64,000 bases of DNA from Elusimicrobiota bacterium (GCA_026388115.1 JAPLKK010000033.1:2470-66469); one strand, 5' to 3'. Numbered from the stretch's first letter, positions 32,819 through 53,047 are shown. Translations and numbers: made by a program. Notes: a model not told the origin generated them from the letters alone.

Positions 32819-33267
<449 letters not shown>

Positions 33268-33907: not shown

Positions 33908-34105
33908 GTCGGATTCTGAACGCCGACACGCGATTATATCAAAAGTCCGAGCCGGACGTCGTCAATCGTGACGAAGGGTCCGGATCTTGGCGCGATCGGG
34001 AATCTGCACCCTAGGGTCTATTCCTTAATAGGCCTACTACCGCGCCTGCGAAACCCCAAAGGCTCAATCGGACCCTCCCCCGCCTATCCTAGAATTGCTG
34101 CCACT

Positions 34106-37100
34106 ATGGTTAAGAATCTCCGCCGGTCGCGCATCCTCCCCATCTTCCTGGCCGCCAGTCTTCTTTTGAGCGGGCCCGCCGGCACGGGTTGGGCGCAGAC
34201 CGTCGGCGCCGCGGCGCATGGCGCCGCCTCGGCCGTGGGCATCTCCGCGGCGGCCGGCGCCCAGGTGGTCGCGCTCCCGCAGGCGAGCGTCCTGCCGCTC
34301 GCGCCTGTCGCCTTGCCCGGCGCCTTGCCGCTCGCCAATCCGTTCCCGCTTTCGGCGCCGCAGACCGCGCCGGCCGCCTCGGCGCAAACGGCCGAAGCCC
34401 TCGCGACGGCCCTGCCTCAAGCCGCCGCTTTGGCGCCGGCGGTCGAACGGCATCCCGTCATCGACCTCATCAACCGCCTCCAGCAGGCGGGCGTCGCCCT
34501 TCCCGAGACGATCGACTCGCCCGCGGACGCGGCCAAGCTGCGCGCCGCGGCCGAGGCCCTGCCCGCCGGCGGCATGCGCGACACGCTCGTCCGACTGGCC
34601 GTGGCGGTGGAGACGCCTCAGGGCCCGGCGCGGCAGGTCGCGCTGGACAACATCTTCGAGAACGGCGTCCCTCCGGCCGCGGCCGCTCCGCAGGCGGTCA
34701 AGCCGGGGCTATGGGAGCGCCTCGCGCAGTCCAAGCTCGTCCCCGCCTCGCTCAAGCGCTACGCCGCGGCCCGCGCAGAAGAGCGGCGTCCCAAGGCGCA
34801 GCCCGTCCCGGCGGATGCTTATAAGGTAAAGACCGACCGCCTGCGCTGGACACCCGACGCGGCCATGCTCGACCAGGCCGCGGCGCTCCCCGCGCCTGCC
34901 AAGGAAGTCGTCGGCCAGGACTTGGCGCTCGAGGCGCTGGAGTTCGGCCTCAAGATGTCGGGCGACGGGCACAACGTCATCATCACCGGCCCGGACGGCT
35001 CCGGCCGCGAGACCGCGACGCGGCGCATGCTCGAGCGCATCGCGCCCTCCATGGACACGCCGCCGGACCTCGTGGCGGTCACGAATCTCAAGCAGAAGGA
35101 GCAGCCGCTGGTGCTCGAGCTGCCGGCCGGCACCGCCGCGTCCTTCAAGGCAGGGCTGAACGGCCTGCTCTCCGCGTTCAAGAAGGGGCTTCCCGCCCTG
35201 CTCGGCTCGGGAGAAGCCGCGGCGAAGAAACACGAGATCCGCGACGCGTTCCAGGAGGCCGCCGCCGGGGCCGAGGCGAAGTTCCAGGAGCAGGTGTCGC
35301 AGGTCAAATTGGCCAACGGCAAATTCGGCGTGATGGCCAAGCCGCAAGAGGACGGCGAGGGGCACGTGACCCTCGTCATCGCCCCGACCTTCAACGGCGA
35401 GCCCCTCGCCAAGGGGGATGAGAAGGCGAAGATCGAAGCCGGCGCCTTCACGGCCGCGGAGTGGGAGCAGGCGATGAAGGAGCTCCCCGGCGTCGCCCAG
35501 CAGGTCAGCCAGCAGTACATGCAGCTGGCGCGGATGATCGCCGCCGCCGGAGCGCAGGCGCAGGGCGCCATCGTCGCCATCGACGCCAAGACCGCGGCGG
35601 CGGCCGTGCATCAGCTCGGCGCTCCGCTCAAGGCGCTGGCCCGGCCGGAGGCCGCGCACGACGACGCGCGCCACGCCGAGCTGCAGAAGCGCGCCAAGCT
35701 TTTGATGCAGGAGTTCGAGAAGACGCACGGCTCCAAGCAGGTGGGGCCGTTCCTGGTCGTCATCCGCATGGCGCAGACCAAGGAAGGCACCCAGCCGGTG
35801 CCCTCGCTGTCCAAGGACGGAAAGCCGGTCGGCCGCGAGACGCTGATGGGCATGATCTTCTCCGGCGAGATGTCCGAGGCCGACTGGGAGAAGATCCAAT
35901 CCGAGATCGAGACCTTCGTCACCGAATATCGCGACGGGCTCAAGAAGCTGACGGAACAGCTCGAGAAGGAGCACGGGGCGCTCCACGCCGGCGACCCGCC
36001 GCCCACCGCGGCGCAGGCCAAGGCCTCGGCCTATGTGGATATGCTCCTCGCGGACATCGCCAAGAACTACCAGGCGTTCCTGCCGCAGCGCGAGGAGGGC
36101 GGCAATCCCCTTGCCGCGCTCATGGCCGCCAAGAAGGGCGACCCGGCCGAGGCGTACGTCGTGAGCGTCCTCGCCGCCAACCAGCCCGGCTCGGGCGCGC
36201 CCGTCATCTTCGAGCGCTCGCCCAGCTTCGAGAACCTGTTCGGCTCCGTCGAGGGCGACGGCCGCGTCCTGATGATGCCGGGCGCCGGCATGGTCAAGGC
36301 CGACGCCCCGGGCGGCCCGGAGCTCAAGAGCGGCTCGTACGTGAAGGCCAACGGCGGCTTCCTCGTGCTCAACCTCATGGACGTCCTGCGCGAGCAGGGA
36401 ACCTGGGCCGCCCTGATGCGCGCCGTTCGCGCCGGCCAGGCCGAGATCGCGGAAGGCGGGGCCATGGGAGCCCTTGTAGGCGCCAACGCCAAGCGCCACC
36501 CGGTCCAGGCCAAGGTCAAGGTCGTGCTCATCGGCTCGACCTCGTTGAAGATGCTCCTTGCGGAACACGACCCCGACTTCGCCCGCCACTTCAAGGCCGC
36601 CTCGCAGTTCGAATCGTCCATGAACATGGCGGTCGAGAACATCGCCGGCTACCTCCACTTCATGAGGTCGATGGCAGAGACGTCCACCGCGGGCGTCCTC
36701 TCCATGACGCGCGACGCCATGGTCGAGGTTCTCCAGTACGCCGCGAAGCTCGCGGGCTCCAACGAGAAGCTGACGGCGAGGTTCAGGCCGCTGCTCGACC
36801 TCATGACCGAGGCGACCTACTGGGCGCGCCAGGCCGGCCATAGCGAGGTCACGGGCTCCGACGTGGCCGCCGCGATCCAGAAGAAGCTGGACTTCGAGGG
36901 CAGCGCGCGCCGCCACATGCAGGAGATGTACTCGAAGGACATCTTCCATATCCAGACCGAGGGCACGGCCGTCGGACAGACGAACGCGCTCACGGTCTAC
37001 GGCGACTTCGGCTTGCCGACGCGCGCCACCGTGACCGTGAAGGCCGGCGGTTCGGGCGTGACCGCGCTCGACGACAAGGCGGGCCTCGCGGGGCCGTTCT

Positions 37101-37642
37101 ACAAGCAAGGCGTCGCGGTGCTCGAGAGTTTCCTCGACCACGTCTTCGCCAAGGAGCGCGGCCTGCCGTTCGAGGTCCGCGTGAAGAAGGAGCAGCTGTA
37201 CTCTCAGATCGACGGCGACTCCTCGACCTCGACGAACATCTACGCGACCCTGTCGGCGCTGTCCGGCGTGCCGATCAAGCAGTCGATCGCGATGACGGGC
37301 TCGGCCGACCAGTTCGGCAACGTCCAGCCGATCGGCGGCGTGAACTACAAGATCGAGGGCTTCTACGACATCATCACGGCGAAGCTGAAGGCGGCGGGCA
37401 AGTCGCTCGACGGGACGCAAGGCGTGATCATCCCGGCGACGAACGTGCCGGACCTCATGCTGCGCGCCGACATCGCCCAGGCCGTCAAGGACGGCAAGTT
37501 CCAGCTGTGGGCCGTCACGCACGTCAGCCAGGGCATCGAGATCCTGACGGGCGAGGCGTACTCCGAGATCGTGCGCAAGATCCAGCTCCGCGCGGACAAG
37601 GTCCGCGGCGGTGGAAAGTCCGGCGCGTCGAAGCCGGATTAA
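34106..37642 (+). CDS. LonC/LonB-like (COG1067 'lon_rel') protease with signal peptide, degenerate AAA+ Walker A and intact Ser-Lys catalytic dyad
   Basis: Start chosen at MVKNLRRSRILPIFLAASLLLSGPAGTGWAQT (signal peptide). An Ala/Pro-rich linker follows. The AAA-like module has VVGQDLALEALEFG...ITGPDGSGRET (34988-35014) with Arg in place of the Walker A Lys. The C-terminal S16 domain has QIDGDSSTS (catalytic Ser codon ~37220) ...AMTGSADQFGNVQPIGGVNYKIEGF (catalytic Lys). Confidence 0.8.
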   Translation: MVKNLRRSRILPIFLAASLLLSGPAGTGWAQTVGAAAHGAASAVGISAAAGAQVVALPQASVLPLAPVALPGALPLANPFPLSAPQTAPAASAQTAEALATALPQAAALAPAVERHPVIDLINRLQQAGVALPETIDSPADAAKLRAAAEALPAGGMRDTLVRLAVAVETPQGPARQVALDNIFENGVPPAAAAPQAVKPGLWERLAQSKLVPASLKRYAAARAEERRPKAQPVPADAYKVKTDRLRWTPDAAMLDQAAALPAPAKEVVGQDLALEALEFGLKMSGDGHNVIITGPDGSGRETATRRMLERIAPSMDTPPDLVAVTNLKQKEQPLVLELPAGTAASFKAGLNGLLSAFKKGLPALLGSGEAAAKKHEIRDAFQEAAAGAEAKFQEQVSQVKLANGKFGVMAKPQEDGEGHVTLVIAPTFNGEPLAKGDEKAKIEAGAFTAAEWEQAMKELPGVAQQVSQQYMQLARMIAAAGAQAQGAIVAIDAKTAAAAVHQLGAPLKALARPEAAHDDARHAELQKRAKLLMQEFEKTHGSKQVGPFLVVIRMAQTKEGTQPVPSLSKDGKPVGRETLMGMIFSGEMSEADWEKIQSEIETFVTEYRDGLKKLTEQLEKEHGALHAGDPPPTAAQAKASAYVDMLLADIAKNYQAFLPQREEGGNPLAALMAAKKGDPAEAYVVSVLAANQPGSGAPVIFERSPSFENLFGSVEGDGRVLMMPGAGMVKADAPGGPELKSGSYVKANGGFLVLNLMDVLREQGTWAALMRAVRAGQAEIAEGGAMGALVGANAKRHPVQAKVKVVLIGSTSLKMLLAEHDPDFARHFKAASQFESSMNMAVENIAGYLHFMRSMAETSTAGVLSMTRDAMVEVLQYAAKLAGSNEKLTARFRPLLDLMTEATYWARQAGHSEVTGSDVAAAIQKKLDFEGSARRHMQEMYSKDIFHIQTEGTAVGQTNALTVYGDFGLPTRATVTVKAGGSGVTALDDKAGLAGPFYKQGVAVLESFLDHVFAKERGLPFEVRVKKEQLYSQIDGDSSTSTNIYATLSALSGVPIKQSIAMTGSADQFGNVQPIGGVNYKIEGFYDIITAKLKAAGKSLDGTQGVIIPATNVPDLMLRADIAQAVKDGKFQLWAVTHVSQGIEILTGEAYSEIVRKIQLRADKVRGGGKSGASKPD

Positions 37643-39051
37643 TCGGCGCCGCCGAGCTTCCTCAGCTCTTTCTGCGCCGAGCGCGCGGTCTCGGGCGACG
37701 GGTTGCCCTCGAGCGCCCTGCGGAAGAACTTGACCGCATAGCCGGTATTCTTCTCCTCAAGGAGGCAGAATCCCATCCCCGCGTAGGCGTCGGCCACGTA
37801 ACGGTCGCGCAGGCCGCTCTTGATCGCCATGGTCAGCGAGTCCATGAACGCGACTCGGGCCGCGCTGAAATCCTTCTGCTGCAGGCGCAGCCCGCCGAGA
37901 AGGCTCAGGCGGCGGATCTCGCGCGGGTCCGTCGGCACCAGCAAGGCCGTGGCCTCGCCCAGTTCGTCTTGCGCCTGGGCAAACATACCCAGCCTCAAGA
38001 ACTCTTCGGCCGCGTTGAGATGCTTCTCGATGCGTTCGTCGACTGACAAGCCCGCGAGGTCCCGCTCCGGGACCCGCACCGGCACGGCAGGTGCCTTCGC
38101 GCCCCCCCAGCGGAAGGTTGCGCTCAATCGGTGCGCAGAGCCCAGGTCGCCCAGCGGTGTGAACGCGTAATCGAGCTGGAACCCGTCATGCCGCCAGCCG
38201 AAGCCGGCCGTGATGCCGATGCCGGCGTCGTTGCGGCCGTTGAATCCCACGCGCGCCGCGAAGGAAGGGGCGAGCCAGCTTTCCGCGCCGAAAGAGAATA
38301 AAGCATTGTCGGAGCGCTCCTTGATCAGGTCGAGCTCGAACGTCACGGGCAAGGCCAGGAGATTATCTACCCAGTCGAAGGAAGCTGGAGCCTCGGCGCC
38401 TGAGCGGACCTCATAAGCCGCGCCGAGCCGCAATTGGGCTGGCAGCTTCTCGTTGGCGCTCTGGAAGCGCACTGTGGAGCCCATATTTTGCAGGGCCGCC
38501 GCGAAGAGCCAGCGCCGCCTGCCCGGCGTCGCATAGAGGATGCCGCCGTCGGCCGCGTAGGCCGAGCCTGAAACATTGTCGATCGACTCGCGAATGAACT
38601 TCACCGCGCCACCGACACGCAGGCCTTCGGCCACCTCCCGGCCCAATCCAAGCCCCAGCGCCGTGTCCGTGATACCGAAAGACGCGCCCGTGCCGTCGGG
38701 GTTCGACACGGTCGTCCGGGGAACGTGTCCGTAGGTCAGGTAATTGAGCTGGAGGCCGAGGCCCTGGGGCGTGGCGAAGCCGACGTACTCCTGCGTGATC
38801 GGCGAGACATACTGATTGTGCATCAAGGTCGCCTCGTAGCGCCCGCCTCGCCCGAGCGCGGCGGGATTGTAGATGAGGGCCTCGGCGTCGGAGGCGAGCG
38901 CCGCCTGGGCCCCTCCCATGGCCACGGCGCGCGCCCCCGCGTCGAGCGAAAGGAAATCGAAGGGCTCGGCCCCCGGGCTCGCAGCCAGCGCCCGGCCGCC
39001 CGCGGCGAACGCGGCCAGAGCCACCCCGATCGCTGCCGCAGTCCTCTTCAT
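37639..39051 (-). CDS. PorV/PorQ-like (UPF0164-type) outer-membrane beta-barrel protein with C-terminal TPR-like extension
   Basis: Signal peptide, then the family-defining LDAGARAVAMGGAQAALASDAEALIYNPAAL motif and an alternating beta-barrel pattern. The last ~130 aa form TPR-like helices. The ATG overlaps the stop of the upstream giant gene (ATGA). Confidence 0.6.
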   Translation of the reverse strand: MKRTAAAIGVALAAFAAGGRALAASPGAEPFDFLSLDAGARAVAMGGAQAALASDAEALIYNPAALGRGGRYEATLMHNQYVSPITQEYVGFATPQGLGLQLNYLTYGHVPRTTVSNPDGTGASFGITDTALGLGLGREVAEGLRVGGAVKFIRESIDNVSGSAYAADGGILYATPGRRRWLFAAALQNMGSTVRFQSANEKLPAQLRLGAAYEVRSGAEAPASFDWVDNLLALPVTFELDLIKERSDNALFSFGAESWLAPSFAARVGFNGRNDAGIGITAGFGWRHDGFQLDYAFTPLGDLGSAHRLSATFRWGGAKAPAVPVRVPERDLAGLSVDERIEKHLNAAEEFLRLGMFAQAQDELGEATALLVPTDPREIRRLSLLGGLRLQQKDFSAARVAFMDSLTMAIKSGLRDRYVADAYAGMGFCLLEEKNTGYAVKFFRRALEGNPSPETARSAQKELRKLGGAD

Positions 39052-41837
39052 CGAATGATCGCGAGCACGCGAGTGGCGCCCACTTGGCCTTGGCTCGTCA
39101 TGACCGCGATGTAACCTCCCGTCGCCACGTCGCGCCCGTCCTCATTGCGGGCGTCCCACTGCAGCCTGCCGCCGGCCTCGCTCGTCATCCGCTTGACGCG
39201 CCGCCCGCTCACCGTGTAGATGGTGACGACGGCTCCCGGAGGCAGCTTATTGAAAACGATGCCGGAGTCCGGGTCCGAGGGGCTGAAGGGGCGCCCCTCG
39301 TCCGGGTTGCCGCCGTTCGGCTTGAACGGCACTGGGTAGATCTGGACCTCGTTCAGGGCGGCGTGGGCGGGCGCCGCGAAGAGGCCGAAGAGGCTGAAGT
39401 GCGGCGTGTTGCCCGTGACCCGATGGTTCACCGCGTCCACGGTCGACAAGAAATCCTTGCGCCATTGCTCGGCGACCGGGTCATAGGCCCACATCTGCAG
39501 GTCCGCGGCGCGCAGACCCGTGCCGTCTACGATGCCGTCGTTGTCGGCGTCCGGGTATGAGATCGAGACCGCCGCGGTCATGCCGTTGACGAGCGCGCTC
39601 TGCCCGTTGTCGAGCGTGATCTCGACGTAATCGTTCGCAGGCAAAGGGTCAGCGTTGAGGACGCGCGCCAGAGCGCGCACGGCCGCCGCGGTGAACGCCG
39701 GCGCGTCGAGCGGGTTATTGACCACGGTGATCGTGACCGTCGAGGAAGCGAGCGCCCCGGCGGGGATCGCCACCGAGGAGAGCTGGCCCGAGCCCGCGTC
39801 TCCCGACTGGACGGTGGTCGCGGCCCCGTTATTGACCTTCTGCTGCGTCTGGACGCTGCCGCCCCCGAGGTCCGTCTCTTGGATGTCGGGCTGGGCCGGG
39901 TCCACGCCGACCGTGATAGCCGGCGGGGTCGCGTCGGCCCGGCCCGAGAAATCCGTGGCGAGGGCGCGAAGGTCATAGGAGCCTGGGGCGAGCAGGTTCG
40001 CGTTCCAATGCACGTACCATGGGGGCGCCGAGGCCGGGTTAGGATGGTTGAACTCGGCGGCGGCCAGCGCGGCCCAGACCGCGGCCGAGGACGGCTTGTA
40101 CTGGAACAGGACCTGGCGGGTCTGCGCGACGTCCCCTAGGACGATCTGGGCCTGGACGGTGATGCGGTTGCCGATGATCTTCTTCCCCGCCTCTGGCGTC
40201 GCGATCGCGGCGCGCACGCCGTCCAAGCTGTTGAGCGCGGCCGCGGCGGCCGACACGCCGGCGTCCTGCTCCTCGACGCCGCAACGATTGACGGCCCGCA
40301 GGCTGAAGCGGTAGGCGGGGCTGGAGACCAGGACGTCGGTGAGGTAGCCCGTCGCCGACGCCGGAAGCTCGGCAAGCGGTTGCACGTAATCGACCTGGCC
40401 GGTCCCCGCGTCGTAATAGAGCTTGTAGCCCGTGACGCCCTCGGAGGGCGATGGAGACCACTGCAGACGGATCCGATCGCTCGCCAGCGACATGGCGGAG
40501 AGCCGGCCCGCCGGAAGCGGCGCCTGGGCCTGCGTGACCAATTGGACCGGCGGGGAATAGTCGCTGGCGAGGCCGTCGCCGTTGATCGCGCGGATCTTCG
40601 CGAAGGCCGGCAGGCAGGCAAGCAGGTAGTAGTCCGTGGCCGAGGTACCGATGCCTTGGAAGACGCGGTTGAACGTCGCGCCGTCGGTGGAGACTAAGAG
40701 CTCGACCGGCGTTCCGGGTGGATCGGAGCCCATCGACCAGGCGAACGCCGCGCTGGTGATCTCGACATCGGCGACGGCCAGCGCCGGAGGGTCCGCCAAG
40801 GTGTAGGCCTGCGCCGGCGCCGAGCGGAGGCCCTCCCCCGTCGCGTTCACGGCGGAGACCACGAGGCGCTGCAAAGTGTTCGGCGCCAGGCCCCCTGACA
40901 CGAACGGCAGAGCGTCCGCGACCCCCGCGGATACCGTCGGATTGGAAGCGTAATAGAGCCGGTACTGCGATGCCCCGGCGACCGCGGTCCATGTCCACAG
41001 CAGGGCGGAGTCGCCGATCGCCGAGACGGACAGGCCCATGGGCGCGGGCGGGCCCGGATCCGCCGCCGTCGCCGCCGCGCCGGCGTACGCCGTGCCGATC
41101 CCGTCGCCGTTGACCGCCCGCACGCGGTAGGAATAGGCGGTCGAGGGCGACAGCCCGGCGTCAACGGCAGCAAGACCGGCGCCGGCCCATCTCTTGACGA
41201 AGCTCGCGCCGGCAGAGCGCTCCAGCTCGAAGATCGTCCCGTCGGGATCGTCGTTGCCCGACCACGCCAAGCTCGCGGAGACCGACGAGACCGCCGTGAC
41301 GGACAATGACGACGGCGCGCCGGCGAGCGTATAGCGCGAGGCGGAGCCCGAGTTCGCCAAACCGCCCGCGTTGAACGCCTGGACATGGTACGCCCCGTAG
41401 GGGAGATTGGCCTGCAGGCCTGACTGCACCCAAGTCGTCGCGGCAGCCGCCAGGTCCCCAGAGAGGTTGGAGGTGCCCGACATCACGCGGTAGCCTGCCG
41501 CGTCCGGCGCATGCGGTGTCCAGGACCATTCGATGGAGGCGCCATCGAGCGCGCGGGCGCCGAAGGCCGACGCGGGAACGGGCGCGCTCAGGTCGTTGGT
41601 GCGCGCGGCAAGCTCGGGAGTAAAGGCGCTCTTGAGCCCGGCGCCGTTGACGGCTCGGACCTGATAGAAGTAGCTCGTGCCGGGCGCGAGCCCCGTGTCG
41701 ATGAACGCGAAGGAGCTTTGCGAGGCGAGCGTCGAAGCGGGGCCGCCGGTGGAGCGCTGGAGCTCGTAGACCGTTTGAGCGGGATTGCCTCCCGCCGCCC
41801 AGGCGAGAGCCACGCTCGTGGGCGACTGGGCCGTCAC
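39048..41837 (-). CDS. C-terminal portion of giant surface protein: Fn3-like tandem domains plus T9SS-type C-terminal sorting domain
   Basis: It continues the same alternating Fn3 module architecture as the upstream 3531-aa ORF. The terminal ~70 aa, AVVTIYTVSGRRVKRMTSEAGGRLQWDARNEDGRDVATGGYIAVMTSQGQVGATRVLAII, match the Por secretion-tail / FlgD-Ig-like CTD. It starts in a +1 frame relative to the upstream ORF's TGA. Confidence 0.8.
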   Translation of the reverse strand: MTAQSPTSVALAWAAGGNPAQTVYELQRSTGGPASTLASQSSFAFIDTGLAPGTSYFYQVRAVNGAGLKSAFTPELAARTNDLSAPVPASAFGARALDGASIEWSWTPHAPDAAGYRVMSGTSNLSGDLAAAATTWVQSGLQANLPYGAYHVQAFNAGGLANSGSASRYTLAGAPSSLSVTAVSSVSASLAWSGNDDPDGTIFELERSAGASFVKRWAGAGLAAVDAGLSPSTAYSYRVRAVNGDGIGTAYAGAAATAADPGPPAPMGLSVSAIGDSALLWTWTAVAGASQYRLYYASNPTVSAGVADALPFVSGGLAPNTLQRLVVSAVNATGEGLRSAPAQAYTLADPPALAVADVEITSAAFAWSMGSDPPGTPVELLVSTDGATFNRVFQGIGTSATDYYLLACLPAFAKIRAINGDGLASDYSPPVQLVTQAQAPLPAGRLSAMSLASDRIRLQWSPSPSEGVTGYKLYYDAGTGQVDYVQPLAELPASATGYLTDVLVSSPAYRFSLRAVNRCGVEEQDAGVSAAAAALNSLDGVRAAIATPEAGKKIIGNRITVQAQIVLGDVAQTRQVLFQYKPSSAAVWAALAAAEFNHPNPASAPPWYVHWNANLLAPGSYDLRALATDFSGRADATPPAITVGVDPAQPDIQETDLGGGSVQTQQKVNNGAATTVQSGDAGSGQLSSVAIPAGALASSTVTITVVNNPLDAPAFTAAAVRALARVLNADPLPANDYVEITLDNGQSALVNGMTAAVSISYPDADNDGIVDGTGLRAADLQMWAYDPVAEQWRKDFLSTVDAVNHRVTGNTPHFSLFGLFAAPAHAALNEVQIYPVPFKPNGGNPDEGRPFSPSDPDSGIVFNKLPPGAVVTIYTVSGRRVKRMTSEAGGRLQWDARNEDGRDVATGGYIAVMTSQGQVGATRVLAIIR

Positions 41838-44800: not shown

Positions 44801-47800
44801 GAAGGCCGCGAGGCTTACCAGACTACGCGGCGACCAAGGCCAGTTTACCACCAGCCAATTCACGCCGTCGGGCGTGGTGAATAGCGGCCCGTTTGAATTG
44901 GCCGCGTACAGTTTTCCGTTGAACGCGGACAGCGCCGTGATCGTCCCCTCTACGGTGGATCCCGCCGTCCAATTGAGCCCGTCGGCGGATGAGGCGATCT
45001 GGCCGTGGTAGTCGGTCCCGGCGTACAATCGTGCGCCGAATATCGCGAGGCTGTAGACATTCCCGTTCACCGCCGGGTGCGTCCAGCTCACGCCGTCAGC
45101 CGAAGCGTAAATCCCCCCGGAGCCTCCAGCATAAAGCTGTCCGTTGAATGAGATCAACGAGAGGATCGGAGGGCCGGGCGCAGGGTTTTGGTACCAGTTG
45201 ATGCCGTCGGGAGAACTGTACAGCGCCGAAGGTACCGCGCCCGTGCTCGCCGCGTAGAGCCTGCCGTTGAATGAAGCCAGAGCGGTGATGGAGGCGACGC
45301 CGTCCCCCGCCACCGCGTAGTTCCGCGTCCAGGCGCCACCTCCGCCCGTGCTGTATACGGCGGCGCCTGCGACGGTACCCGCATAGAGCCTTCCGTTGAA
45401 AGCCGCAAAACTCCTGACCGAGCGGCCGCTCGTGACGAATTCCGTCGACCAGGCGAGCCCATCCGAGGATGAGTAGACGGCGCCGCTATTCGCGGAGCCC
45501 GCGAATATCTTTCCGTTGTAGGAAGCCAGGCTCTGCACCCCGGAATTCCAATAGGGCCAGTCCATGTTGGCGAAGTCCTGCCACGCGCTTCCAGCCGACG
45601 ACGAGCACATCACCCCGAAGCCCTGCACGAAGCCCGGGGTGTCGTGCCCGTCTCCAACGAGCGCGAGCGCGTTCGCCGAGACCGCCAGGCCGCTGACCGC
45701 GTCCTGGACGCCGATCTGCACCGTCACGGTCGAGCGCAGGTCGTTCACCTGCGATTCGCTCACGGCCGCGCCGCTCGAATTGAGGCTCGCGAAAGCCCCG
45801 GCCTGGGCGGGAGGCGTGAAGTCGGTCACGAAGCTGAACGTCGGCGACCACGGCCCGACGCTGTCGCCGCTCAGCGCCACCCGCCAGTAGTACGTGGCGG
45901 CCTCAGTGAGAGTGAAAGTAGAGAGATAGGCCGCGTCCGCCGTCGGCAGGCCGGTACTCGCCACGACTGCCGGCGTCGAGATGCCGATGACGATGCTTGC
46001 CGGCGAAAAGCCGGGGTCGTTGTTCGACACTTGAAGGAGATAGGACGCGCCGGAGGACATGCCGGCCACGACCGCCGTGCTGGCGCCGATCCAATCGAAG
46101 TTGGGCTGGAGGTTCACGTAGGCGCCGTTGGCCGGGTAGGTCGGCAGGAGGCTCACCGGCGTGAGCGCGAGGGATACGGGGCCCGCGAAATCGGTCGCGA
46201 TCCCCTCGCCATTCTTGGCCCGGACCCAGTACGTGTAGGTGATGCCGGGCAGCAGAGCGTCGGTGAACGTAGGCGCCGCGCTCGATTGGAAGACGGCGGC
46301 CAGGGTCGTGCCGGTCGAGCGTTCAAGGTCCCATATGGTATTGGGCGGATTCCCGTTGGGCGACCAGGAGAGCGTCGCGCCGCCGGCGCCGAGGGGCGAG
46401 ATCGAGAACTGGGCGGGCGCCGCCGCCAAGGTGAAGCCCGAATTGGAAGACGAGTCCGCTGTGCCGGATGAATTGAAGGCGCGCGCGAAATAGGGACCGT
46501 AGCGGGTGTTGATCGACAGTCCCGTCTGCAGCCAGCTCGTCGTCCCCGCCGGAAGGTCGCCGGAGATGCTCGTCGATCCGGACATGACCCGTAGACCGGC
46601 CGCGTTCGGCACGCTGTTGACCCAGCTCCAGCGGATCGCATCCGGGCCGGCGGCGGCATGCGCGAACAAGCCCGGGGCCGTCGGCGCCGCGAGGTTCCAG
46701 CCCGAGACGTTGACGGGAACCGGACCGGCGAAGGCGGTGAAATAGCCGTCGCCGTTCTTGGCCCGGACCTTGTAGTAATAGGTCGCCGAGAGCGTCAGGC
46801 CGCCGTCGGCGACACTCGCCGCGACGCTGGATTGAAAGACCGGCGCGTATAGCACGCCGTCGGTCGAGCGTTCCAAGTCCCAGAACGTCCCGCTCGGATT
46901 CCCGTTCGCGTCCCAGCTCACGGTCGCACTGCTCGGGCCCACGGCGGTCGCCGCGAGATTCGCGGGGACCGCCGCCAAAGTGAAGGCCGAAGCGGACCAC
47001 GAGTCGGCGGCGCCGGTGGAATTGAAGATGCGCACGAAGTACGGTCCGTACCTCGTGTTCGTCGCGAGGCCGAGCTCCAACCACACCGTCGTGCCCGGCG
47101 GCAGGTCGCCCGAGATGTTCGTCGTCCCGGACATGACGCGAAATCCGGAGATCATCGTAGCGGTGCTGACCCACGACCATTGGATCGCATCCACGCCCAC
47201 GGCGCTGTGCATGTAGTTTGCCGCAGCCGGCGGCGGCGAGGACACCACGATCGCGTAAGGTCCGGCCGCGAGCACGTTCCCCGCGAGATCGGAGACGGTG
47301 AAGATCACTTGGTTGGTGGCCGCGCAAGGCGAGGCTCCGCCGCAGGTCACCGTATTGGATGAATTGTTAAGCGCGAGACCGAAGACGCTCAGCGTCTGCG
47401 CCGCCGTCGTGCCGTCCGCGCCGCCGAGGTTGGGGAAGAGCGGATTCTTTAGGATGATCCTGCCGTCATTGGTCCCGGCGTAGAAATTGCCGGAAAACCC
47501 CGCCAAGCTCGCGATCCCGCCTGCCGCGGCGGTGCTGAAGACGAGCATCCACCGCGCTCCATCAGGCGAGGCATAGATCGCGCCGTCGGGTCCCGCGCCG
47601 GCATAGAGCTTGCCGTTGAAGACGGCGAGGCTCCGGATCGCGGTCTCTCCGGTGCCGGTCAGGACCGCGGCCCAATCGGAGCCGTTGGCCGAAGCGTAAA
47701 CCGCGCCCGCCGGCTCGGTCCCCGCGTAGAACTTGCCGTTGAAGGCGGCCAGGGTCCGGATAGCCGTCGCCCCCGGCAACGATGCCTGGCTCCAGTTCAC

Positions 47801-50800
47801 GCCGTCGACGGAGGCGAACAGGATGCCGGCGCCTCCCGCGAAGAGCCTGCCGTTGAACGCGCCGAGCGTCCCGATGGAAGGACCCGGAGCGGGCACCCGG
47901 CTCCAACCGGCGCCGTCGGACGACGCATACAGCATCGACGCGGCGCTGTTCGAGGCGTATATCCTCCCGCCGAACACCGTCAGGCTCGCGATGCCCTGAG
48001 GCCCCGCCTGCGCCGGCGCGGTGTAAGCCGCCGACCAGGTGGTCCCGTTGAACGATGAGAATATCTTCCCGGCCCCATAGGTGCCGAAGAAGAGCTTCCC
48101 ATTGAATACGGCGAAGCTTTGGATCTGCGTCTCGCCGGCGCCGCCCGGGAACGTGCTGCTGAAGACAAGATTCCAGGTGACGCCGTTCGCCGAGGCATAC
48201 AATCCCGCGTTGTTCGCGGTCGCGGCGTACAATCTCCCGTTGAAGGAGGCAAGAGCCGGCACCGATACGGCCGCGGTGCTGGAAAAGGTGGGCGTCATGT
48301 AGTAGGAATCGACCCAACTCTTGCCTGCGTCGGTCGAATAGAGGACGCCGCAGCCCCCGCTCGAACCCGGGCCGTCATGCCCGTCCCCCGCGAATGCAAG
48401 GCGGCCTTGGGTGACCGCAAGACCGGTGCCGGCGTCTTGGACGCCGAGCCGGGCCGCTCCCCCGAACCCCGGATTGATCTGCGCCTCGCCGACCAGCGTG
48501 GAGGTCCCGCTGAGACTGGCGAAGGCCGCGGACTGAACGGGCGGCGTGAAGTCCGCGTAGAACTTGGACGCCTGCGACCATGCCCCGAATGCGCCGTTGT
48601 TCGCGGCGACGCGCCAATAGTAGGTGGTGTTGTCGGTGAGGGTGAAGGTGGAGAGGTACGCCGCGTCCGCCGTCCGCACGCTCGTGCTCGTCAAGACGGC
48701 CGGAGTGGATATGCTGATCACGATATTGGACGGCGTGAAAGCCGGGTCGTTGTTGGAGACCTGGAGATAGTACGCCGACCCCGCGGGCAGAGCGGCGGCC
48801 GAGGTGGTGCTGAGCCCGATCCAATCGAAGTTGGGCTGGATGTTGACATACGATCCATCGACTGGAAACGTCGGGACGGCGGTGGAGAGCGCCGGAAGGG
48901 TGATGACCGTGGCCGTGGCCGCGAACGCGGTGAAGAAGCCGTCGCCGTTCTTGGCGCGCACTTGGTAGAAATAGGTCGATGCGGGCAGCAGGCCGTAGTC
49001 CGTATAGCTCGCCGCCGCGCTCGACTGGAAGATGCTGTTGACGTTGATGCCGTCGCTCGAACGCTCAAGGTCCCATACGGTGCCCGCCGGGTCGCCGTTC
49101 GCCGACCAGCTCAACGTCGCGCTGCTCGCTCCGGCGACGCTGCCGGCGAAGCCGGCGGGCACCGCCGCCAGCGTATAGCCGGAAACGGAAGCCGAATCCG
49201 CCGTCCCGCTCGAGGTGAAGACTCGGACGACATAGGGACCGTAGCGCGTGTTCGTCGAAAGGCCGGTCTGCAGCCAGCCGGTCGCGTCGGGCGGCAGGTC
49301 TCCCGACACGTTCGCGCTCGCGGCCATCACGCGATAGCCGGACGGGTTCGGCGAGGCGCCGGTCCAAGACCATTGGATCGAATCGACGCCCGTCGCGCGA
49401 CGGGCAAAGCTCAGGGGCGCGCTCGGCATCGATGAAATGAGGACGGCGAACGGACCGGCCGTGAGCACGTTGCCCCCCAGGTCCGAGGCCGTGAAGAGCA
49501 CCTGGTTGGTCGCGCCGCACGGCGAGACCCCGCCGCAAACGACCGAATTCGACGAGTTCACCAAGCTGAGGTTGAAGGCGCTGAGCGTCTGCGCTCCGGT
49601 CGCACCGTTCGTTCCCGTGAGCCCGGCCTGGACCGGCGTGAACTGGTATATCTTTCCGCCGTCGGTCCCGGCATACAGCTTTCCGTTCAATGCCGCCAAG
49701 CCCTCGACTCCGCCTGCCGCGGCGCTGCTGAATACGGGCATCCATGTCGCCCCGTCCGGCGAGGCATAGATCCCCCCCATGTATGTCCCGGCATACAGCT
49801 TCCCATTGAAGACAGCAAGGCTCCGGATGGAAGCTCCGCCGGTGCCGGTCAGCGCCGGAGTCCAATCGACGCCGTTCGCGGAGCCGTAGACCGCACCGCT
49901 GGGCTCCGTTCCGGCGAACAACCTGCCGTTGTACGAGGCGAGACTCCGGATCGCGGTCGTTCCCGGTATCGAGGTCTGCCCCCAGTTGACGCCGTCGGCC
50001 GAGACGAAAAGCACGCCGTTGGCGCCCGCATAGAGCCTGCCGTTGAACACCCCGAGCGTGTTGACCGACGGACCCGGAGAGCCCACCGGGCTCCAGCTCG
50101 CCCCGTCACCCGAGACATAGATCACCGAGGTCACGCTGTTCACCGCGAACAGCTTCCCGTTGAACACGACCATGCTCTCGATGCCCTGCGCCCCGGCCTG
50201 GACCGGCGAAGTGAAGACAGCCGTCCAAGTGCTTCCGTCGGGCGAGGAGAAGATCTTTCCCTTTCCGTAGGTGCCGAAGTACAGCTTTCCATTGAAGGGG
50301 GCGAAGGATTGGATCTGGGTCTCGCCGGCTCCGCCCGGGAACGTGCTGCTGAAGACCTGGGTCCAGCTGCCGCCGCTCGCCGAGACGTACAATCCCGCGT
50401 TGTTCGTGGTGCCGGCATAGGCCTTGTTGTTGAAGGCCGCAAGGGCCAACACGTGAGTCGTGCTGCTGCCGGCAAAGACGATGTTGGGGCTCGGCGAATC
50501 GATCCAAGTCCGGCCGGCATTGGTGGAATACAGGACGCCGAAGGGGCTGCTCCAGCTGGAATAGTCGTGCCCGTCCATGGTGGGCGGGCTCGGAAAGACC
50601 GCGAGGCCGGTGCCGGCGTCTTGAACGCCGATCTGCGCGGTCACGTTGGCCGCCAAGCTCTGGAGCTGAGCTTCGCCCGCCGGCGGATAGGTCGAGACGC
50701 GGGTGCCGAAACCCGCGGCCTGAGCCGGCGCGGTAAAATCGGTCTGGAATCTCGCGGGAAAGAAACCCATGCCGGTCTGGATCAACCACGGTCCGAGCAC

Positions 50801-52429
50801 CTCGGACTGCGCGTCGGCCACCGCGACGCGCCAATAGTAGGTCGTATTGTCGGTGAGCGTGAACGTCGAGCCGTACGCTCCGTCCGCCGTCGGAAGGCCG
50901 GCGGCGACGACGACGGGCGTCGCTATGCTGATCACGATGCTCGATGGCGCAAAGGCCGGGTCGTTGTTCGAGACTTGGAGGAGATACAGCGCGCCGCCCG
51001 GCAGGCCGGCGGCCGAGACCGTGCTGAGGCCGATCCAATTGAAATTCGGCTGGACGTTCAAATACGCGTAGTTGGGCGGGTAGCTCGGCGCGATCGCCGA
51101 CAGGTCCGGGGGGAGCACGCCGCTCAGGGTCAGGCGGAGCGCGCGGTACGCGTTGGCCAGCCCCGCGCCGGCCGCCGCCGAGGCGCCGATGGCGTATGCC
51201 GAGCTTCTCAGATTGGTCTGCACCTGCGCCGGCGTCAGCGTCGGCATGGCCGAGAGCATGAGGGCCGCGATGCCCGCGACCAGCGAGGAGGCGTACGACG
51301 TGCCGGCCACGGAAACGTAGCCGCCGTTGAGGCCGGTGGTGAGGATCCCGTTGACGGCGTCGCCGCCCGGAGCGACGAGGCCGTTGGCGGCGAGCTCGGG
51401 GCCGCGGGACGAATAGGCGGCCACGGCGTTGGATATGTCCGTGGCGCCCACGGGGATCACATTCGCGCAATTGGCGGGGTTGTTGACCGCGTTCCCATCG
51501 TTTCCCGCGGAGGCAACGACGGTCATTCCCGCTGCGGAGGCGGCGTTGAGCGCGTTCTGCAGCGGCGCGCCGCACGGGCCCGCCGCGCCGAGGCTGAGGT
51601 TCGCGACGACGCGACCCGTCAAAGTCTCGGCGTAGCCAAGCGCGGCGATGACGGAAGCGTCCGAAGCGACGCAAGCGCTTCCCCCGCAGGAGGAGTCGCA
51701 GGAGCCGTCGCTCGGGAATACTTTCAGCGAGACGACCTTCGCCCCCCACGAAATGCCCGCGACACCGATCCCGTTGTTGGTCGAGGCGGCGGCGACGCCC
51801 GCGACCGCCGTGCCGTGGTAACAGGCCGGAACCGGCGGGTTCTCACCGACGCAGACGCCGCTCGAGCAGTCCTGGCTATGCGACGCGTCGATCTTAGCGG
51901 CAAGGTCGGGATGGTCGGCCTGTATGCCGGAGTCGATGATCGCGATCGAGACCGGATTGGTGTTCCCCGTCTCGTAGCTCCAGGCGGCGAGCGCGGCCAC
52001 GTTGTTCAAGTACCACTGGCCGCCCAGTTGAGGGTCGTTCGGGCTCAGCAGCGCCCGGTGGGCGCGGTTGGGATGGGCGTCGAGCACGCCGGGCAAGGCC
52101 TTCAATATCTCCAGCCCATTGGCGACGGGCATGCCCTCGGGCATGAAGACGAGGTGAGCGGCGCTTCGCCCGAGCCGCCGCTGCACCAACATCCCTGCGT
52201 TCCTCAACGCTTGCGCCCGTACCTTCGCGTCCACGCCCTCATCGAAGAGAACGAGTGCCTCCCCGGCGAGCACTTCCGCATTGCGAAAGGACGGCATGCG
52301 CTCGACGCGGCGCCTATGCGCCGCCTCGGCCGAAGCGGGAACGAGAGAGACGGCCGCCAGCGACAGGAGGGCGCCGACCAGGCGACAGGCGGCGGAACGG
52401 GCTGTTCGGCGGCCACAAAATCCAAGCAT
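41834..52429 (-). CDS. N-terminal portion of giant secreted protein: signal peptide, I9-like propeptide, S8 subtilisin domain, multiple BNR/Asp-box beta-propellers, Fn3 arrays
   Basis: S8 triad in IIDSGIQ (Asp), CYHGTAVAG (His), AGTSYASS (Ser) at ~51229-52039. It has dozens of S-x-D-G-x-x-W Asp-box motifs with FNGKLYAGT blades, and repeated Fn3 modules (LAAVP...SATLSWSANGNP...WDLERS). The 3531 codons run without a stop. Confidence 0.85.
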   Translation of the reverse strand: MLGFCGRRTARSAACRLVGALLSLAAVSLVPASAEAAHRRRVERMPSFRNAEVLAGEALVLFDEGVDAKVRAQALRNAGMLVQRRLGRSAAHLVFMPEGMPVANGLEILKALPGVLDAHPNRAHRALLSPNDPQLGGQWYLNNVAALAAWSYETGNTNPVSIAIIDSGIQADHPDLAAKIDASHSQDCSSGVCVGENPPVPACYHGTAVAGVAAASTNNGIGVAGISWGAKVVSLKVFPSDGSCDSSCGGSACVASDASVIAALGYAETLTGRVVANLSLGAAGPCGAPLQNALNAASAAGMTVVASAGNDGNAVNNPANCANVIPVGATDISNAVAAYSSRGPELAANGLVAPGGDAVNGILTTGLNGGYVSVAGTSYASSLVAGIAALMLSAMPTLTPAQVQTNLRSSAYAIGASAAAGAGLANAYRALRLTLSGVLPPDLSAIAPSYPPNYAYLNVQPNFNWIGLSTVSAAGLPGGALYLLQVSNNDPAFAPSSIVISIATPVVVAAGLPTADGAYGSTFTLTDNTTYYWRVAVADAQSEVLGPWLIQTGMGFFPARFQTDFTAPAQAAGFGTRVSTYPPAGEAQLQSLAANVTAQIGVQDAGTGLAVFPSPPTMDGHDYSSWSSPFGVLYSTNAGRTWIDSPSPNIVFAGSSTTHVLALAAFNNKAYAGTTNNAGLYVSASGGSWTQVFSSTFPGGAGETQIQSFAPFNGKLYFGTYGKGKIFSSPDGSTWTAVFTSPVQAGAQGIESMVVFNGKLFAVNSVTSVIYVSGDGASWSPVGSPGPSVNTLGVFNGRLYAGANGVLFVSADGVNWGQTSIPGTTAIRSLASYNGRLFAGTEPSGAVYGSANGVDWTPALTGTGGASIRSLAVFNGKLYAGTYMGGIYASPDGATWMPVFSSAAAGGVEGLAALNGKLYAGTDGGKIYQFTPVQAGLTGTNGATGAQTLSAFNLSLVNSSNSVVCGGVSPCGATNQVLFTASDLGGNVLTAGPFAVLISSMPSAPLSFARRATGVDSIQWSWTGASPNPSGYRVMAASANVSGDLPPDATGWLQTGLSTNTRYGPYVVRVFTSSGTADSASVSGYTLAAVPAGFAGSVAGASSATLSWSANGDPAGTVWDLERSSDGINVNSIFQSSAAASYTDYGLLPASTYFYQVRAKNGDGFFTAFAATATVITLPALSTAVPTFPVDGSYVNIQPNFDWIGLSTTSAAALPAGSAYYLQVSNNDPAFTPSNIVISISTPAVLTSTSVRTADAAYLSTFTLTDNTTYYWRVAANNGAFGAWSQASKFYADFTPPVQSAAFASLSGTSTLVGEAQINPGFGGAARLGVQDAGTGLAVTQGRLAFAGDGHDGPGSSGGCGVLYSTDAGKSWVDSYYMTPTFSSTAAVSVPALASFNGRLYAATANNAGLYASANGVTWNLVFSSTFPGGAGETQIQSFAVFNGKLFFGTYGAGKIFSSFNGTTWSAAYTAPAQAGPQGIASLTVFGGRIYASNSAASMLYASSDGAGWSRVPAPGPSIGTLGAFNGRLFAGGAGILFASVDGVNWSQASLPGATAIRTLAAFNGKFYAGTEPAGAVYASANGSDWAAVLTGTGETAIRSLAVFNGKLYAGAGPDGAIYASPDGARWMLVFSTAAAGGIASLAGFSGNFYAGTNDGRIILKNPLFPNLGGADGTTAAQTLSVFGLALNNSSNTVTCGGASPCAATNQVIFTVSDLAGNVLAAGPYAIVVSSPPPAAANYMHSAVGVDAIQWSWVSTATMISGFRVMSGTTNISGDLPPGTTVWLELGLATNTRYGPYFVRIFNSTGAADSWSASAFTLAAVPANLAATAVGPSSATVSWDANGNPSGTFWDLERSTDGVLYAPVFQSSVAASVADGGLTLSATYYYKVRAKNGDGYFTAFAGPVPVNVSGWNLAAPTAPGLFAHAAAGPDAIRWSWVNSVPNAAGLRVMSGSTSISGDLPAGTTSWLQTGLSINTRYGPYFARAFNSSGTADSSSNSGFTLAAAPAQFSISPLGAGGATLSWSPNGNPPNTIWDLERSTGTTLAAVFQSSAAPTFTDALLPGITYTYWVRAKNGEGIATDFAGPVSLALTPVSLLPTYPANGAYVNLQPNFDWIGASTAVVAGMSSGASYLLQVSNNDPGFSPASIVIGISTPAVVASTGLPTADAAYLSTFTLTEAATYYWRVALSGDSVGPWSPTFSFVTDFTPPAQAGAFASLNSSGAAVSESQVNDLRSTVTVQIGVQDAVSGLAVSANALALVGDGHDTPGFVQGFGVMCSSSAGSAWQDFANMDWPYWNSGVQSLASYNGKIFAGSANSGAVYSSSDGLAWSTEFVTSGRSVRSFAAFNGRLYAGTVAGAAVYSTGGGGAWTRNYAVAGDGVASITALASFNGRLYAASTGAVPSALYSSPDGINWYQNPAPGPPILSLISFNGQLYAGGSGGIYASADGVSWTHPAVNGNVYSLAIFGARLYAGTDYHGQIASSADGLNWTAGSTVEGTITALSAFNGKLYAANSNGPLFTTPDGVNWLVVNWPWSPRSLVSLAAFNGKLYIGSWTNGGIARAAPLASALSGADGTTAAQTLTGALLNLSNSAASMVCNGISPCGATNQAIFTAWDRAGNVRTAGPFAIQAAGPPIASWLSGRAMGTGSMLWFWPAPASLVVGYRVMSGTVNLSGDLPASATSWLEVGLSTNTTYYRFLRTFNSTGTADSYQFPGATSAAPPTSLAISPVGPSSATLSWSANGNPAGTTWDIFRSTDGVSYAWRSLLTTGATSFTDTSLAPLSTYYFKVAGRNRDSIDSALAGPVALPPLIAPPSIFAGTPVSTRSIFWSWNDKSVLGTRYRVISGNANVSGDLAGNTTTFLQTGLTPNTLYGPYWVTAFNGATNATSAPASRYTLAAAPSGLAAVAASSSAVGLSWSANGNPVTTLFDLQRSTSGTFVSIALTTAATFLDTGLNPSTMYWYQVRAKNAEGLFTDFGVMASTLTAAQGPPVAPKGFAGKGVATTRIAWSWSSGATNALGYRVMAGATNLSGNLFPDATSWMQDGLSTATCYGPYLLQAFNGSGVSTSSSAASACTLAAPPTMFYPLAVSTTSVTLSWSTNGNPQGTRYTVSASTAGSPFLSQTTATATVTFGGLLPATTYLFSIVAISPSSDTSQQTVTSARTADASAPAAATGFAGVALGTSAVQWRWTVNSAVAAGYRVLAGTANISGDLPPSLNSWTQTGLSPNRIYGPCLVEAFNSGGTADSGLASRATLAASPAGFAAVRISSTSATFSWSAAGNPSGTPYRLERSTTGATANFSPWITTLDTAATDGYLSPATTFYYRLAAVNADGVLSAYTPAAAVVTPSADAPPAPTNVSGAAVARNAIRWTWTGNSMNETGYRVLSAGVNLSGDLPPFTVVWLQTGLSTNTQYGPMTVQVFNHGGASVSLPPVSAYTLAVAPAGLVVSAASTTASLRWSANSNPAGTLYEVDRSTGGVFLFVANVRSTTYLDTGLSPLVAYSYQVRALNGDGVPTAFVRSGMTMTSSPGPPAAPR

Positions 52430-52642
52430 TTGATCCCGGCTATTCGGCTGGCTCCGCGAGTGAGGTACTGGATTTCAAAAAACTACGACCTGCCGGCCGA
52501 TTTAGCGTTTTATCTGAATTTAGGCGCAACTCTTAGGTTAGCCCCGGGGCGCCACCGAATCCCGAAGAAATTCCGACTTTCCTTAATACACTAAGCAGGC
52601 AAGGCTTCGGCCGTTGCGTTGCAAAAAGGTATAAAGACCCGC

Positions 52643-53047
52643 ATGGACATCAAGATCGCTTTCCCCGGAAACAAGAAGGTCTCGGCCGAGTTCGACGGCA
52701 TGACGGTGCTGACCGATCAGCCGAAGGAGTCGGGCGGCGACGGCACGGCGCCCAGCCCCTTCCAGCTCTTCTTGGCGTCGCTGGGGACCTGCGCGGGCAT
52801 CTTCGCGCTGAGCTTCTGCAGGAAACGCGACCTCTCGACCAAGGGGCTGGAGATCGTCCAGCACGTCGATTGGGACGACACCGAGCACCGCGCCACGAAG
52901 ATCACTTTCGACGTCATCTTGCCGGACGGATTCCCCGAGAAATACCGCGACGCGCTCGTGTCGGCCGTGAACCTATGCACGGTCAAGAAGCATCTGCTCC
53001 AGCCGCCCGCGCTCATCACGCGGACGCTGACCCGCGCCGCGGGCTGA
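52643..53047 (+). CDS. OsmC/Ohr-family peroxiredoxin-like protein
   Basis: MDIKIAFPGNKKVSAEFDG...APSPFQLFLASLGTCAG...NLCTVKKHL matches OsmC-like proteins. The ATG at 52643 was chosen over the TTG extension. Confidence 0.8.
   Translation: MDIKIAFPGNKKVSAEFDGMTVLTDQPKESGGDGTAPSPFQLFLASLGTCAGIFALSFCRKRDLSTKGLEIVQHVDWDDTEHRATKITFDVILPDGFPEKYRDALVSAVNLCTVKKHLLQPPALITRTLTRAAG

Follow-up and report, generated by a model that had tools for sequence, protein, structure and literature searches.

A giant CTD-bearing protein gene paired with its own PorV/PorQ-family barrel gene in Elusimicrobia

PorZ and PorU are the two type IX secretion system (T9SS) proteins to retain their C-terminal domains (CTDs), and it is PorQ and PorV, respectively, that hold them on the cell (PMC5562754). 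MAIN (microbial GAIN) domains have been described in bacteria and archaea in a preprint of May 2026; for bacterial MAIN domains, cleavage between the F and S of an HFS motif has been shown experimentally, the products staying associated, and force-dependent shedding of the ectodomain has been proposed for the proteins that carry them (bioRxiv 10.64898/2026.05.12.724683). The same preprint presents MAIN as a Gram-positive counterpart of autotransporters; T9SS, PorV, and Elusimicrobia go unmentioned in its main text, and its supplement contains, with no comment, a few architectures in which ZU5 is followed by FlgD_ig (bioRxiv 10.64898/2026.05.12.724683). Here we analyze a stretch of 64,000 nucleotides from an Elusimicrobiota bacterium (GCA_026388115.1 JAPLKK010000033.1:2470-66469; hereafter the window), which encodes a giant protein with a GAIN/MAIN-like domain and a T9SS-type CTD directly upstream of a PorV/PorQ-family barrel protein.

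The conserved unit at this locus consists of two genes, one for the giant CTD protein and one for the barrel. With moderate confidence, we regard the pair as a lineage-expanded cargo-anchor cassette. It joins three parts that are each known, the T9SS-type CTD, the barrel of the PorV/PorQ family, and the MAIN/GAIN-like domain, in a combination that we have not found described. The reading we hold to be probable is that of an autonomous surface-display cassette, in which a self-cleaving giant protein is held by its own barrel, next to an unrelated Lon-like gene. An original prediction for positions 33968-52429 had instead combined an exported Lon-like protease, a giant S8 protease with a CTD, and a PorV-like shuttle into one unit for surface-protease display. 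Its limits coincide exactly with boundaries of open reading frames (ORFs), namely the starts of the Lon-like and the giant ORF. The GAIN/MAIN-like domain and a frameshifting deletion in the giant gene were absent from that first description.

The conserved pair of cargo and barrel genes

Relatives of the barrel were sought in one genome per GTDB species, which yielded 145 loci confirmed by tblastn, and 79 of these were fetched and compared. They derive almost entirely from metagenome-assembled genomes (MAGs) of Elusimicrobia, many of which contribute 2-4 fetched loci. In ~75 of the 79 loci, the same-strand gene directly upstream of the barrel ends in the same ~390-residue module, which shares 27-57% identity with the 929-aa ORF of the window in its middle part and 43-73% in the CTD. 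The earlier claim that a giant CTD cargo is co-transcribed with its own TPR-bearing PorV-like partner in a high-GC genome outside Bacteroidota is supported. The typical spacing between cargo and barrel genes is -4 bp, corresponding to a 4-bp overlap (values of -112 are an artefact of choosing the first possible start codon). In the window, the ATG of the barrel gene overlaps the stop codon of the giant gene in the same manner (39048-39051), and this overlap suggests translational coupling. At some loci (L006, L008, and L080) the cassettes are arranged in tandem. All-against-all clustering of 749 ORFs from the 79 loci revealed no further conserved neighbour family beyond closely related genomes. 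The recurrent clusters of UvrA, PolA, release factor, response regulator, and similar housekeeping genes were discounted, being common to closely related genomes only. A 1,980-aa ORF in L077 is the sole large non-cargo ORF of near-SprA size among the loci.

The module, hereafter the stalk, is widespread. A stalk profile searched against 1.84 billion proteins matched 863 cluster representatives (50% identity) at E <= 1e-30; with the limit relaxed to E <= 1e-10, the number rises to 4,159. It is always located at the extreme C-terminus of these proteins, which reach lengths of up to 5,913 aa. The payloads preceding it are diverse: among 36 members, Fn3 domains occur in 31 and Kelch propellers in 10, with some BNR, NHL, and LamG domains, and only one member carries S8. 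The notion of a surface-protease display unit is consequently too narrow, as the payloads are mostly Fn3 domains and Kelch or BNR propellers.

The barrel protein (470 aa) bears a signal peptide in its sequence. It is named "PorV/PorQ family protein [Elusimicrobia bacterium]" in the source database, where its origin is an Elusimicrobia MAG. Its score for the PorV/PorQ family model NF033709 (151.3 bits) exceeds the curated threshold of 90, whereas it stays below the equivalog cutoffs for PorQ (NF033711, 105.5/220), PorV (NF033710, 50/250), and PorV2 (56/325); among these specific models, PorQ scores higher than PorV. When a profile of the barrel and 13 homologues was compared with the sequences of the PDB, PorV from Flavobacterium (6h3i) was matched with an E of 4.4e-16. 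The AlphaFold2 (AF2) model of the barrel protein (mean predicted local distance difference test score, pLDDT, 76) contains ~14 strands followed by seven helices, which form a TPR domain. Its top Foldseek match is chain F of 8gl6 (E 4e-12), the T9SS translocon complex with the bound CTD of RemA, and this chain falls in the PorV sequence cluster. FadL follows at 3e-8, and FadL, TodX, and TbuX are all strong structural matches of the model. PorP/SprF models are absent from the NCBIfam and Pfam matches of the barrel at E <= 0.01. The assignment to a PorV-like family stands, and a dedicated 1:1 anchor is a better fit than a shuttle. The TPR tail is present in ~40% of the barrel homologues (31/74). 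One homologue, P0022, has an OmpA peptidoglycan-binding domain at its C-terminus instead of the TPR domain, which recalls the TPR and OmpA domains of PorE.

The CTD is most similar to those that T9SS proteins retain. NCBIfam PorZ is matched in its CTD segment by all 44 aligned stalks, the best at E 1.2e-17 and the window copy at 6.6e-7, while 33 match TIGR04183, the type A sorting domain, 32 match Pfam FlgD_ig, and 10 match PorU. A profile of the CTD alone, compared with the PDB, retrieved PorZ 5m11 (E 2.5e-7), in an alignment that extends as far as the C-terminal ...IIR. PorU was retrieved as well (E 0.023). Both hallmarks of type A cargo are found here, an Ig-like sorting domain (70-100 residues in such cargo) at the extreme C-terminus and a Sec signal, the latter on the 3,531-aa ORF. 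Moreover, the distance matrices of the CTDs and their adjacent barrels are correlated with r = 0.69 (reached by 0/2000 permutations), which exceeds the value obtained for the CTD and the domain next to it in the same polypeptide (r = 0.54), and paralogues within a genome are only 34-65% identical. These sequence comparisons fit CTD-barrel pairs that are dedicated partners.

The ~180-residue domain between the Ig-like domain and the CTD, which no Pfam family matches, is GAIN-like in the AF2 fold of the last 400 residues (pLDDT 81), which was modeled from a 9-row alignment. Foldseek searches with this stalk model matched the GAIN domain of BAI3 (4dlo; probability 1.0, root-mean-square deviation 5.0, ~200 columns) and CD97 (9mqr; probability 1.0), as well as PorZ and PorU. 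The low global template-modeling scores result from the use of the whole 400-residue, three-domain model as the query. Independently of the fold, a profile of the domain compared with PDB sequences found adhesion G-protein-coupled receptor (GPCR) B2 (BAI2) as its top, if weak, match (E 0.14), aligned exactly at the GPS (W...HLS-x-FA), with the family consensus ...gqWskd...tgqtphFSfFalfa opposite ...GDWDTE...CQCQHLSTFAVLA of the receptor. The HFS motif sits in the turn between the final two strands (277-282 and 287-292 of the model) and takes the form H-F/L-S/T-x-F in the family. Its positions rank among the best conserved: in the 44 stalks, H is present in 41, F or L in 44, S or T in 44, and the next F in 41. 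The motif is likewise retained, at a distance of ~117 residues from the C-terminus, in 143 of the best 150 representatives of the family. The domain ends ~12 residues ahead of the CTD in all aligned members and is positioned between the ectodomains and the surface anchor. About 5% of the members (P0121, P0168, P0198, and others) have GFS, SFS, or TFS in place of the motif with His, and these may be non-cleaving variants.

The giant protein and its divided gene

From N- to C-terminus, the giant protein is composed of a signal peptide, an I9-like propeptide region, an S8 domain, three supermodules, ~20 Fn3 domains, and the conserved stalk, which runs from Fn3 through the Ig-like and GAIN/MAIN-like domains to the T9SS-type CTD. 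The S8 domain matches PF00082 (Peptidase_S8) with an E of 1.9e-41, and its catalytic triad lies in the motifs IIDSG (D166), YHGT (H205), and GTSYA (S378). The claim of a giant S8 protease with a CTD is right in its protease and signal peptide. In the window, however, the CTD belongs to the separate 929-aa ORF. Likewise, the three large genes described originally are contiguous, but they amount to four ORFs, the giant being split in two.

The 3,531-codon ORF terminates with ...SSPGPPAAPR, and the following ORF opens with VTAQSPTSVALAW... in the middle of an Fn3 domain; this 929-aa ORF has no signal peptide. A look-up of the exact sequence of the 3,531-aa product found it in no record. The Logan contig L001 (run SRR25046533) contains 268 extra bases at ~41840 (L001:2401-2668) and is otherwise 100% identical over 11 kb. 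It reads across the junction in frame as a single ORF, from which an intact giant protein of 4,549 aa was reconstructed, and its 90 extra residues are an Fn3 domain of the "...GCRVLAG..." type, as the repeat pattern predicts at this place. The 268-bp deletion accounts for the frameshift, for the TGA stop, and for the GTG at which the 929-codon ORF appears to start. Judged from this comparison, the 3,531- and 929-codon ORFs are one gene. An independent, translationally coupled gene for the 929-aa product was considered and rejected, given its start within an Fn3 domain and its continuity with the giant ORF in L001.

In the form analyzed here, the window codes for an S8 fragment with no anchor and an anchor fragment with no signal peptide. 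It is possible, although we lean the other way, that the locus is a decaying pseudogene in the present organism, with a real deletion, an S8 fragment left unanchored, and a 929-aa fragment that is not exported. The junction has a microhomology of 1 bp only, and the absent piece is 70-75% identical to the paralogous repeats, so that collapse by the assembler is not an obvious cause of the deletion; it was set aside as such, with a real allele and an assembly fault both kept under consideration. These features and the mid-domain start of the 929-aa ORF, lacking an export signal, are what a pseudogene would lead one to expect. On the other hand, the contig of SRR25046533, identical elsewhere, is intact at this site, which indicates the full gene in at least part of the population, and both fragments have kept a coding-like GC content at third codon positions (GC3) of 0.85-0.88.

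Proposed function, the Lon-like neighbour, and other readings

In the autonomous display cassette that we favour, the giant protein and the barrel would both be exported by Sec, as their signal peptides suggest, and the giant would then reach the cell surface, for which a T9SS-like translocon is the obvious candidate route. Passage of the giant across the outer membrane through the plugged 14-strand barrel is unlikely. The retained CTD would dock on its own barrel, as PorZ does on PorQ and PorU on PorV. We infer this docking from homology, from the 1:1 coupling of the genes, and from co-variation; a further analogy is offered by type B CTDs and their PorP/SprF partners (PMC9143113). By analogy with the MAIN domains, the GAIN/MAIN-like domain would cut itself between the F and S of HFS; the ectodomain of ~4,400 residues would stay non-covalently on a stub of ~115 residues, comprising one strand and the CTD, and could be shed under force. 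Fold, motif, and position of the domain point to cleavage, non-covalent attachment, and release alike. More speculatively, the TPR tail of the barrel, which would lie in the periplasm, or an OmpA tail may tie the barrel to the cell wall, as PorE does for PorP.

Several observations weigh against this proposal. The copy in the window, split by the 268-bp deletion, may be non-functional or mis-assembled, and its CTD is matched by the PorZ CTD only, with no TIGR04183 match at E <= 0.01. The co-variation of CTD and barrel could arise from co-inheritance alone. In sequence, the domain is linked weakly to GAIN (E 0.14 for the match to GPCR B2); when the domains of 44 members were compared with Pfam, GPS, GAIN, and ZU5 gave no match up to an E of 10, and the cysteines of the GPS are absent. 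Furthermore, genes for a T9SS translocon, motor, or sortase are neither contained in the 64-kb window nor found as conserved neighbours of the loci. T9SS is regarded as confined to Bacteroidota and the Fibrobacterota-Chlorobiota-Bacteroidota (FCB) group (PMC4793230, PMC5445135), whereas the window and nearly all of the 79 loci belong to Elusimicrobia.

An unlikely alternative is a canonical T9SS cargo with its shuttle: the genome would harbor a full T9SS, at the SprA/Sov translocon, the barrel would take up the cargo, whose CTD would be removed by a PorU-like sortase that also links the cargo to lipopolysaccharide. Both the homology of the CTD to type A sorting domains (TIGR04183 in 33/44 relatives) and the PorV-family barrel, with PorV in the CTD-bound translocon complex as its top structural match, are in agreement with such a system. 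However, one barrel per cargo gene, the 4-bp overlap, and several divergent pairs per genome contrast with the single general PorV of Bacteroidota, and the nearest CTDs are the retained ones of PorZ and PorU. In addition, a self-cleaving GAIN/MAIN-like domain right before the CTD is sensible only if the CTD is kept as an anchor, and our literature search found no report of T9SS in Elusimicrobia.

We also consider it improbable, though of interest, that Elusimicrobia have no canonical T9SS and that the CTD and barrel form a self-sufficient display system of an ancestral type, with a PorQ-like barrel both delivering and holding the giant, a TPR/OmpA tie to the wall, and GAIN-like release by force. 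If true, adhesion-GPCR mechanics would have in the cassette a prokaryotic analogue from a diderm, and the T9SS attachment complex a possible evolutionary precursor.

The Lon-like gene, which we regard as a neighbour of the display cassette and not a part of it, encodes a member of the LonC family by its sequence. Pfam AAA_32, LonB_AAA-LID, and Lon_C are matched above cutoff, and LonC_helical reaches 22 bits, under its 24-bit cutoff. The best solved relative is MtaLonC (E 1e-57), with which the catalytic Ser and Lys align, corresponding to Ser1082 (DGDSS) and Lys1129 (GGVNYKIEG). The protein has a signal-peptide-like N-terminus from M47 (34106) and an Ala/Pro-rich linker of ~240 residues. At the Walker A position it carries GPDGSGRE (34988), in which K is replaced by R and S/T by E; the site reads GPDGSGR[EQS]TA in 8 of 9 homologues and GAGGSGRSLA in the ninth. 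Signal-peptide-like N-termini are present on all full-length homologues found, and the named ones all come from Elusimicrobia. As originally proposed, the protein is probably exported and ATPase-dead, and signal peptides are likewise found on the giant and the barrel. Our literature search found no description of a periplasmic LonC or of an exported, presumably ATP-independent Lon.

A three-gene envelope-proteolysis unit, in which this protease would act together with the S8 giant and a PorV-like shuttle or process them, is very unlikely. The genes are contiguous, the 3' ends of the Lon-like and barrel genes overlap by 4 bp, and all three products have signal peptides. Moreover, in two close relatives (57-61% Lon identity) the Lon-like gene lies ~2-3 kb from a giant Fn3 or Kelch gene, which is followed by the orthologous barrel in one of them. 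However, no Lon-like gene occurs within 10 kb of the cassette in any of the 79 loci, and only the cargo-barrel pair, not the trio, is conserved across genomes. Between Lon and the cassette, the close relatives have a PIN toxin pair, a channel-like gene, or hypothetical genes; their cassette is inverted relative to the window, and synteny extends equally to the housekeeping genes upstream of Lon. The payload of their giants is Kelch and S8 is not seen, so the S8 head is not conserved with Lon, and homologues at 38-41% Lon identity have no cassette nearby. In our reading, the position of Lon beside the cassette reflects a local gene order that was inherited, and the two do not form a functional unit. 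In the sister genome (L082), the Lon-like gene is separated from a 5,077-aa Kelch-rich giant gene by a PIN-domain toxin pair and by a gene that weakly matches Neur_chan_memb, a ligand-gated channel family (8185-8888 and 8975-9955).

Also very unlikely is a nutrient-uptake pair in which a FadL-type barrel imports the products of a surface enzyme encoded in the same utilisation locus: FadL, TodX, and TbuX do match the barrel model strongly in structure, but PorV outranks FadL in both the fold and the sequence-profile search, the conserved neighbour of the barrel is the CTD stalk and not the mostly non-enzymatic payload of Fn3 and Kelch domains, and the CTD co-varies with the barrel.

Locus layout and comparison with known systems

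The coordinates of the features are collected below. All four ORFs within 33968-52429 show a coding-type codon bias (GC3 0.84-0.92), and the three on the minus strand (470, 929, and 3,531 codons) overlap their neighbours pairwise by 4 bp. The Lon-like ORF on the plus strand converges on the minus-strand barrel and giant genes, as described originally, and its 3' end overlaps that of the 470-codon ORF (37639-37642). The overlap falls at both stop codons and leaves no space for an intergenic terminator, so that the transcripts of both strands must overlap. At the other end, the divergent region at 52430-52640 is visibly AT-richer, in accordance with the original prediction. We presume that the intergenic region is the promoter region of the cassette; a search for a sigma-70 consensus in 52430-52640 found none.

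Table 1 Positions of the ORFs, domains, and other features, counted from the first letter of the window
Feature	Position	Strand	Remarks
Lon-like ORF	33968-37642	+	1,224 codons; protein of 1,178 aa counted from M47 (34106)
Barrel ORF	37639-39051	-	470 codons
C-terminal TPR domain of the barrel protein	~37642-38043	-	
FadL/PorV-like 14-strand barrel	~38104-38982	-	AF2 model, profiles
C-terminal ORF of the giant	39048-41837	-	929 codons
T9SS-type CTD	39051-39356	-	
GAIN/MAIN-like domain	39357-39902	-	
HFS motif	39393-39401	-	H813-F814-S815 of the 929-aa ORF; H4433-S4435 of the reconstructed protein
Ig-like domain of the stalk	39903-40223	-	
Fn3 domains of the 929-codon ORF	40224-41837	-	
Deletion junction	41834-41840	-	268 bases fewer than in L001
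N-terminal ORF of the giant	41834-52429	-	3,531 codons
Array of paired, alternating Fn3 types	41840-44512	-	
Three supermodules, each Ig-like + DUF6242 beta-propeller + Ig-like	~44510-51097	-	
S8 subtilase	~51179-51952	-	D166/H205/S378
Signal peptide of the giant	52322-52429	-	cleavage region ...ASAEA
Divergent intergenic region, giant gene / OsmC-like gene	52430-52643	.	visibly AT-richer

Housekeeping genes flank the region on both sides. PhoU/PHO4, saccharopine dehydrogenase, a SEC-C protein, and a Polyketide_cyc2 protein are encoded on the upstream side, and OsmC, RF2, a deacetylase, TonB-ExbBD, Lnt, and SecA on the downstream side, with purine and pyrimidine biosynthesis genes located more distantly in the window. 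The 425-codon ORF with a terminal SEC-C motif at 31990-33267(+) overlaps other long ORFs, and its true extent is uncertain. The ExbB-ExbD-TonB operon has directly upstream of it, on the same strand (57395-61070, minus), the gene for a HEAT-repeat protein of 548 aa and a 685-aa ORF that no Pfam family matches. The SecA gene at 62683-63981(-) is a separate gene, truncated by the window end. In the segment at ~4000-10000, GC is 0.57-0.63 compared with ~0.68 elsewhere; it contains a gene for an AAA_14/DUF4143 ATPase (5566-6768) and a 251-codon ORF (7269-8024), and may be foreign or mobile.

Our analysis corrects the annotation of this locus, in which a deletion has divided one gene and the Lon-like gene does not partner the others. 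T9SS-type CTDs and PorV/PorQ barrels occur here in a phylum not regarded as T9SS-bearing, as a large family of 1:1 cargo-anchor pairs. The cassette also suggests how the MAIN domain, described mainly for Gram-positive wall-anchored proteins, could be anchored in a bacterium with an outer membrane. Should the translocon be absent, it would bear on the origin of the T9SS attachment machinery.

The relation of each component to a described system is as follows. MtaLonC of Meiothermus taiwanensis, an ATP-independent Lon-like protease (PMC3391209, PMC13069640), shares with the Lon-like neighbour an AAA-like module that contains a helical insertion, as well as the LID, the S16 domain, and a conserved Ser-Lys dyad. 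Unlike MtaLonC, the neighbour has a signal peptide, the Ala/Pro-rich linker, a longer insertion, and the altered Walker A site seen in 8/9 homologues. The GAIN/GPS region of adhesion GPCRs (BAI2, BAI3, and CD97) resembles the GAIN/MAIN-like domain in its beta-sandwich, its W...H-L/F-S/T-x-F-A motif, and the location of the site between a large ectodomain and a membrane anchor. In the cassette, however, the domain lacks the GPS cysteines, no helical GAIN_A was detected, and no seven-transmembrane domain is present, the similarity in sequence being marginal (E 0.14).

MAIN proteins, such as YfkN of Bacillus subtilis (bioRxiv 10.64898/2026.05.12.724683), follow the same order of signal peptide, adhesion or enzyme domains, autoproteolytic domain, and anchor. 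They also place HFS in a turn before the last strand and are large, with Fn3, Ig, and hydrolase payloads. Their anchors are sortase signals, SLH, or cell-wall-binding domains, whereas the cassette would use a T9SS-type CTD together with a dedicated barrel in a diderm. The SprB-SprF system of Flavobacterium johnsoniae and the PG1035-PorP-PorE system (PMC9143113) likewise have a gene for a giant repetitive adhesin beside that for a barrel anchoring its CTD, an anchoring we presume here. PorE brings TPR and OmpA domains to the PorP complex (PMC9143113), and the barrel of the cassette has a TPR domain, or in P0022 an OmpA domain, fused to it. In contrast to these systems, the barrel is of the PorV/PorQ and not of the PorP/SprF type, and the CTD is type-A-like or PorZ-like and not of type B.

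The closest parallel is provided by PorQ-PorZ and PorV-PorU of Porphyromonas gingivalis (PMC5562754), in which a surface protein with a retained CTD is bound 1:1 to a 14-strand barrel of the PorV/PorQ family, as we propose for the giant and its barrel. In keeping with this, the CTD of the cassette is nearest to those of PorZ and PorU, and its barrel scores higher as PorQ than as PorV. The cassette differs from them in its overlapping genes, its many divergent pairs per genome, and its occurrence in the phylum Elusimicrobia. Its barrel often carries a TPR tail and falls below the PorQ and PorV equivalog cutoffs, and its cargo is a giant adhesin or enzyme and not a component of the machinery.

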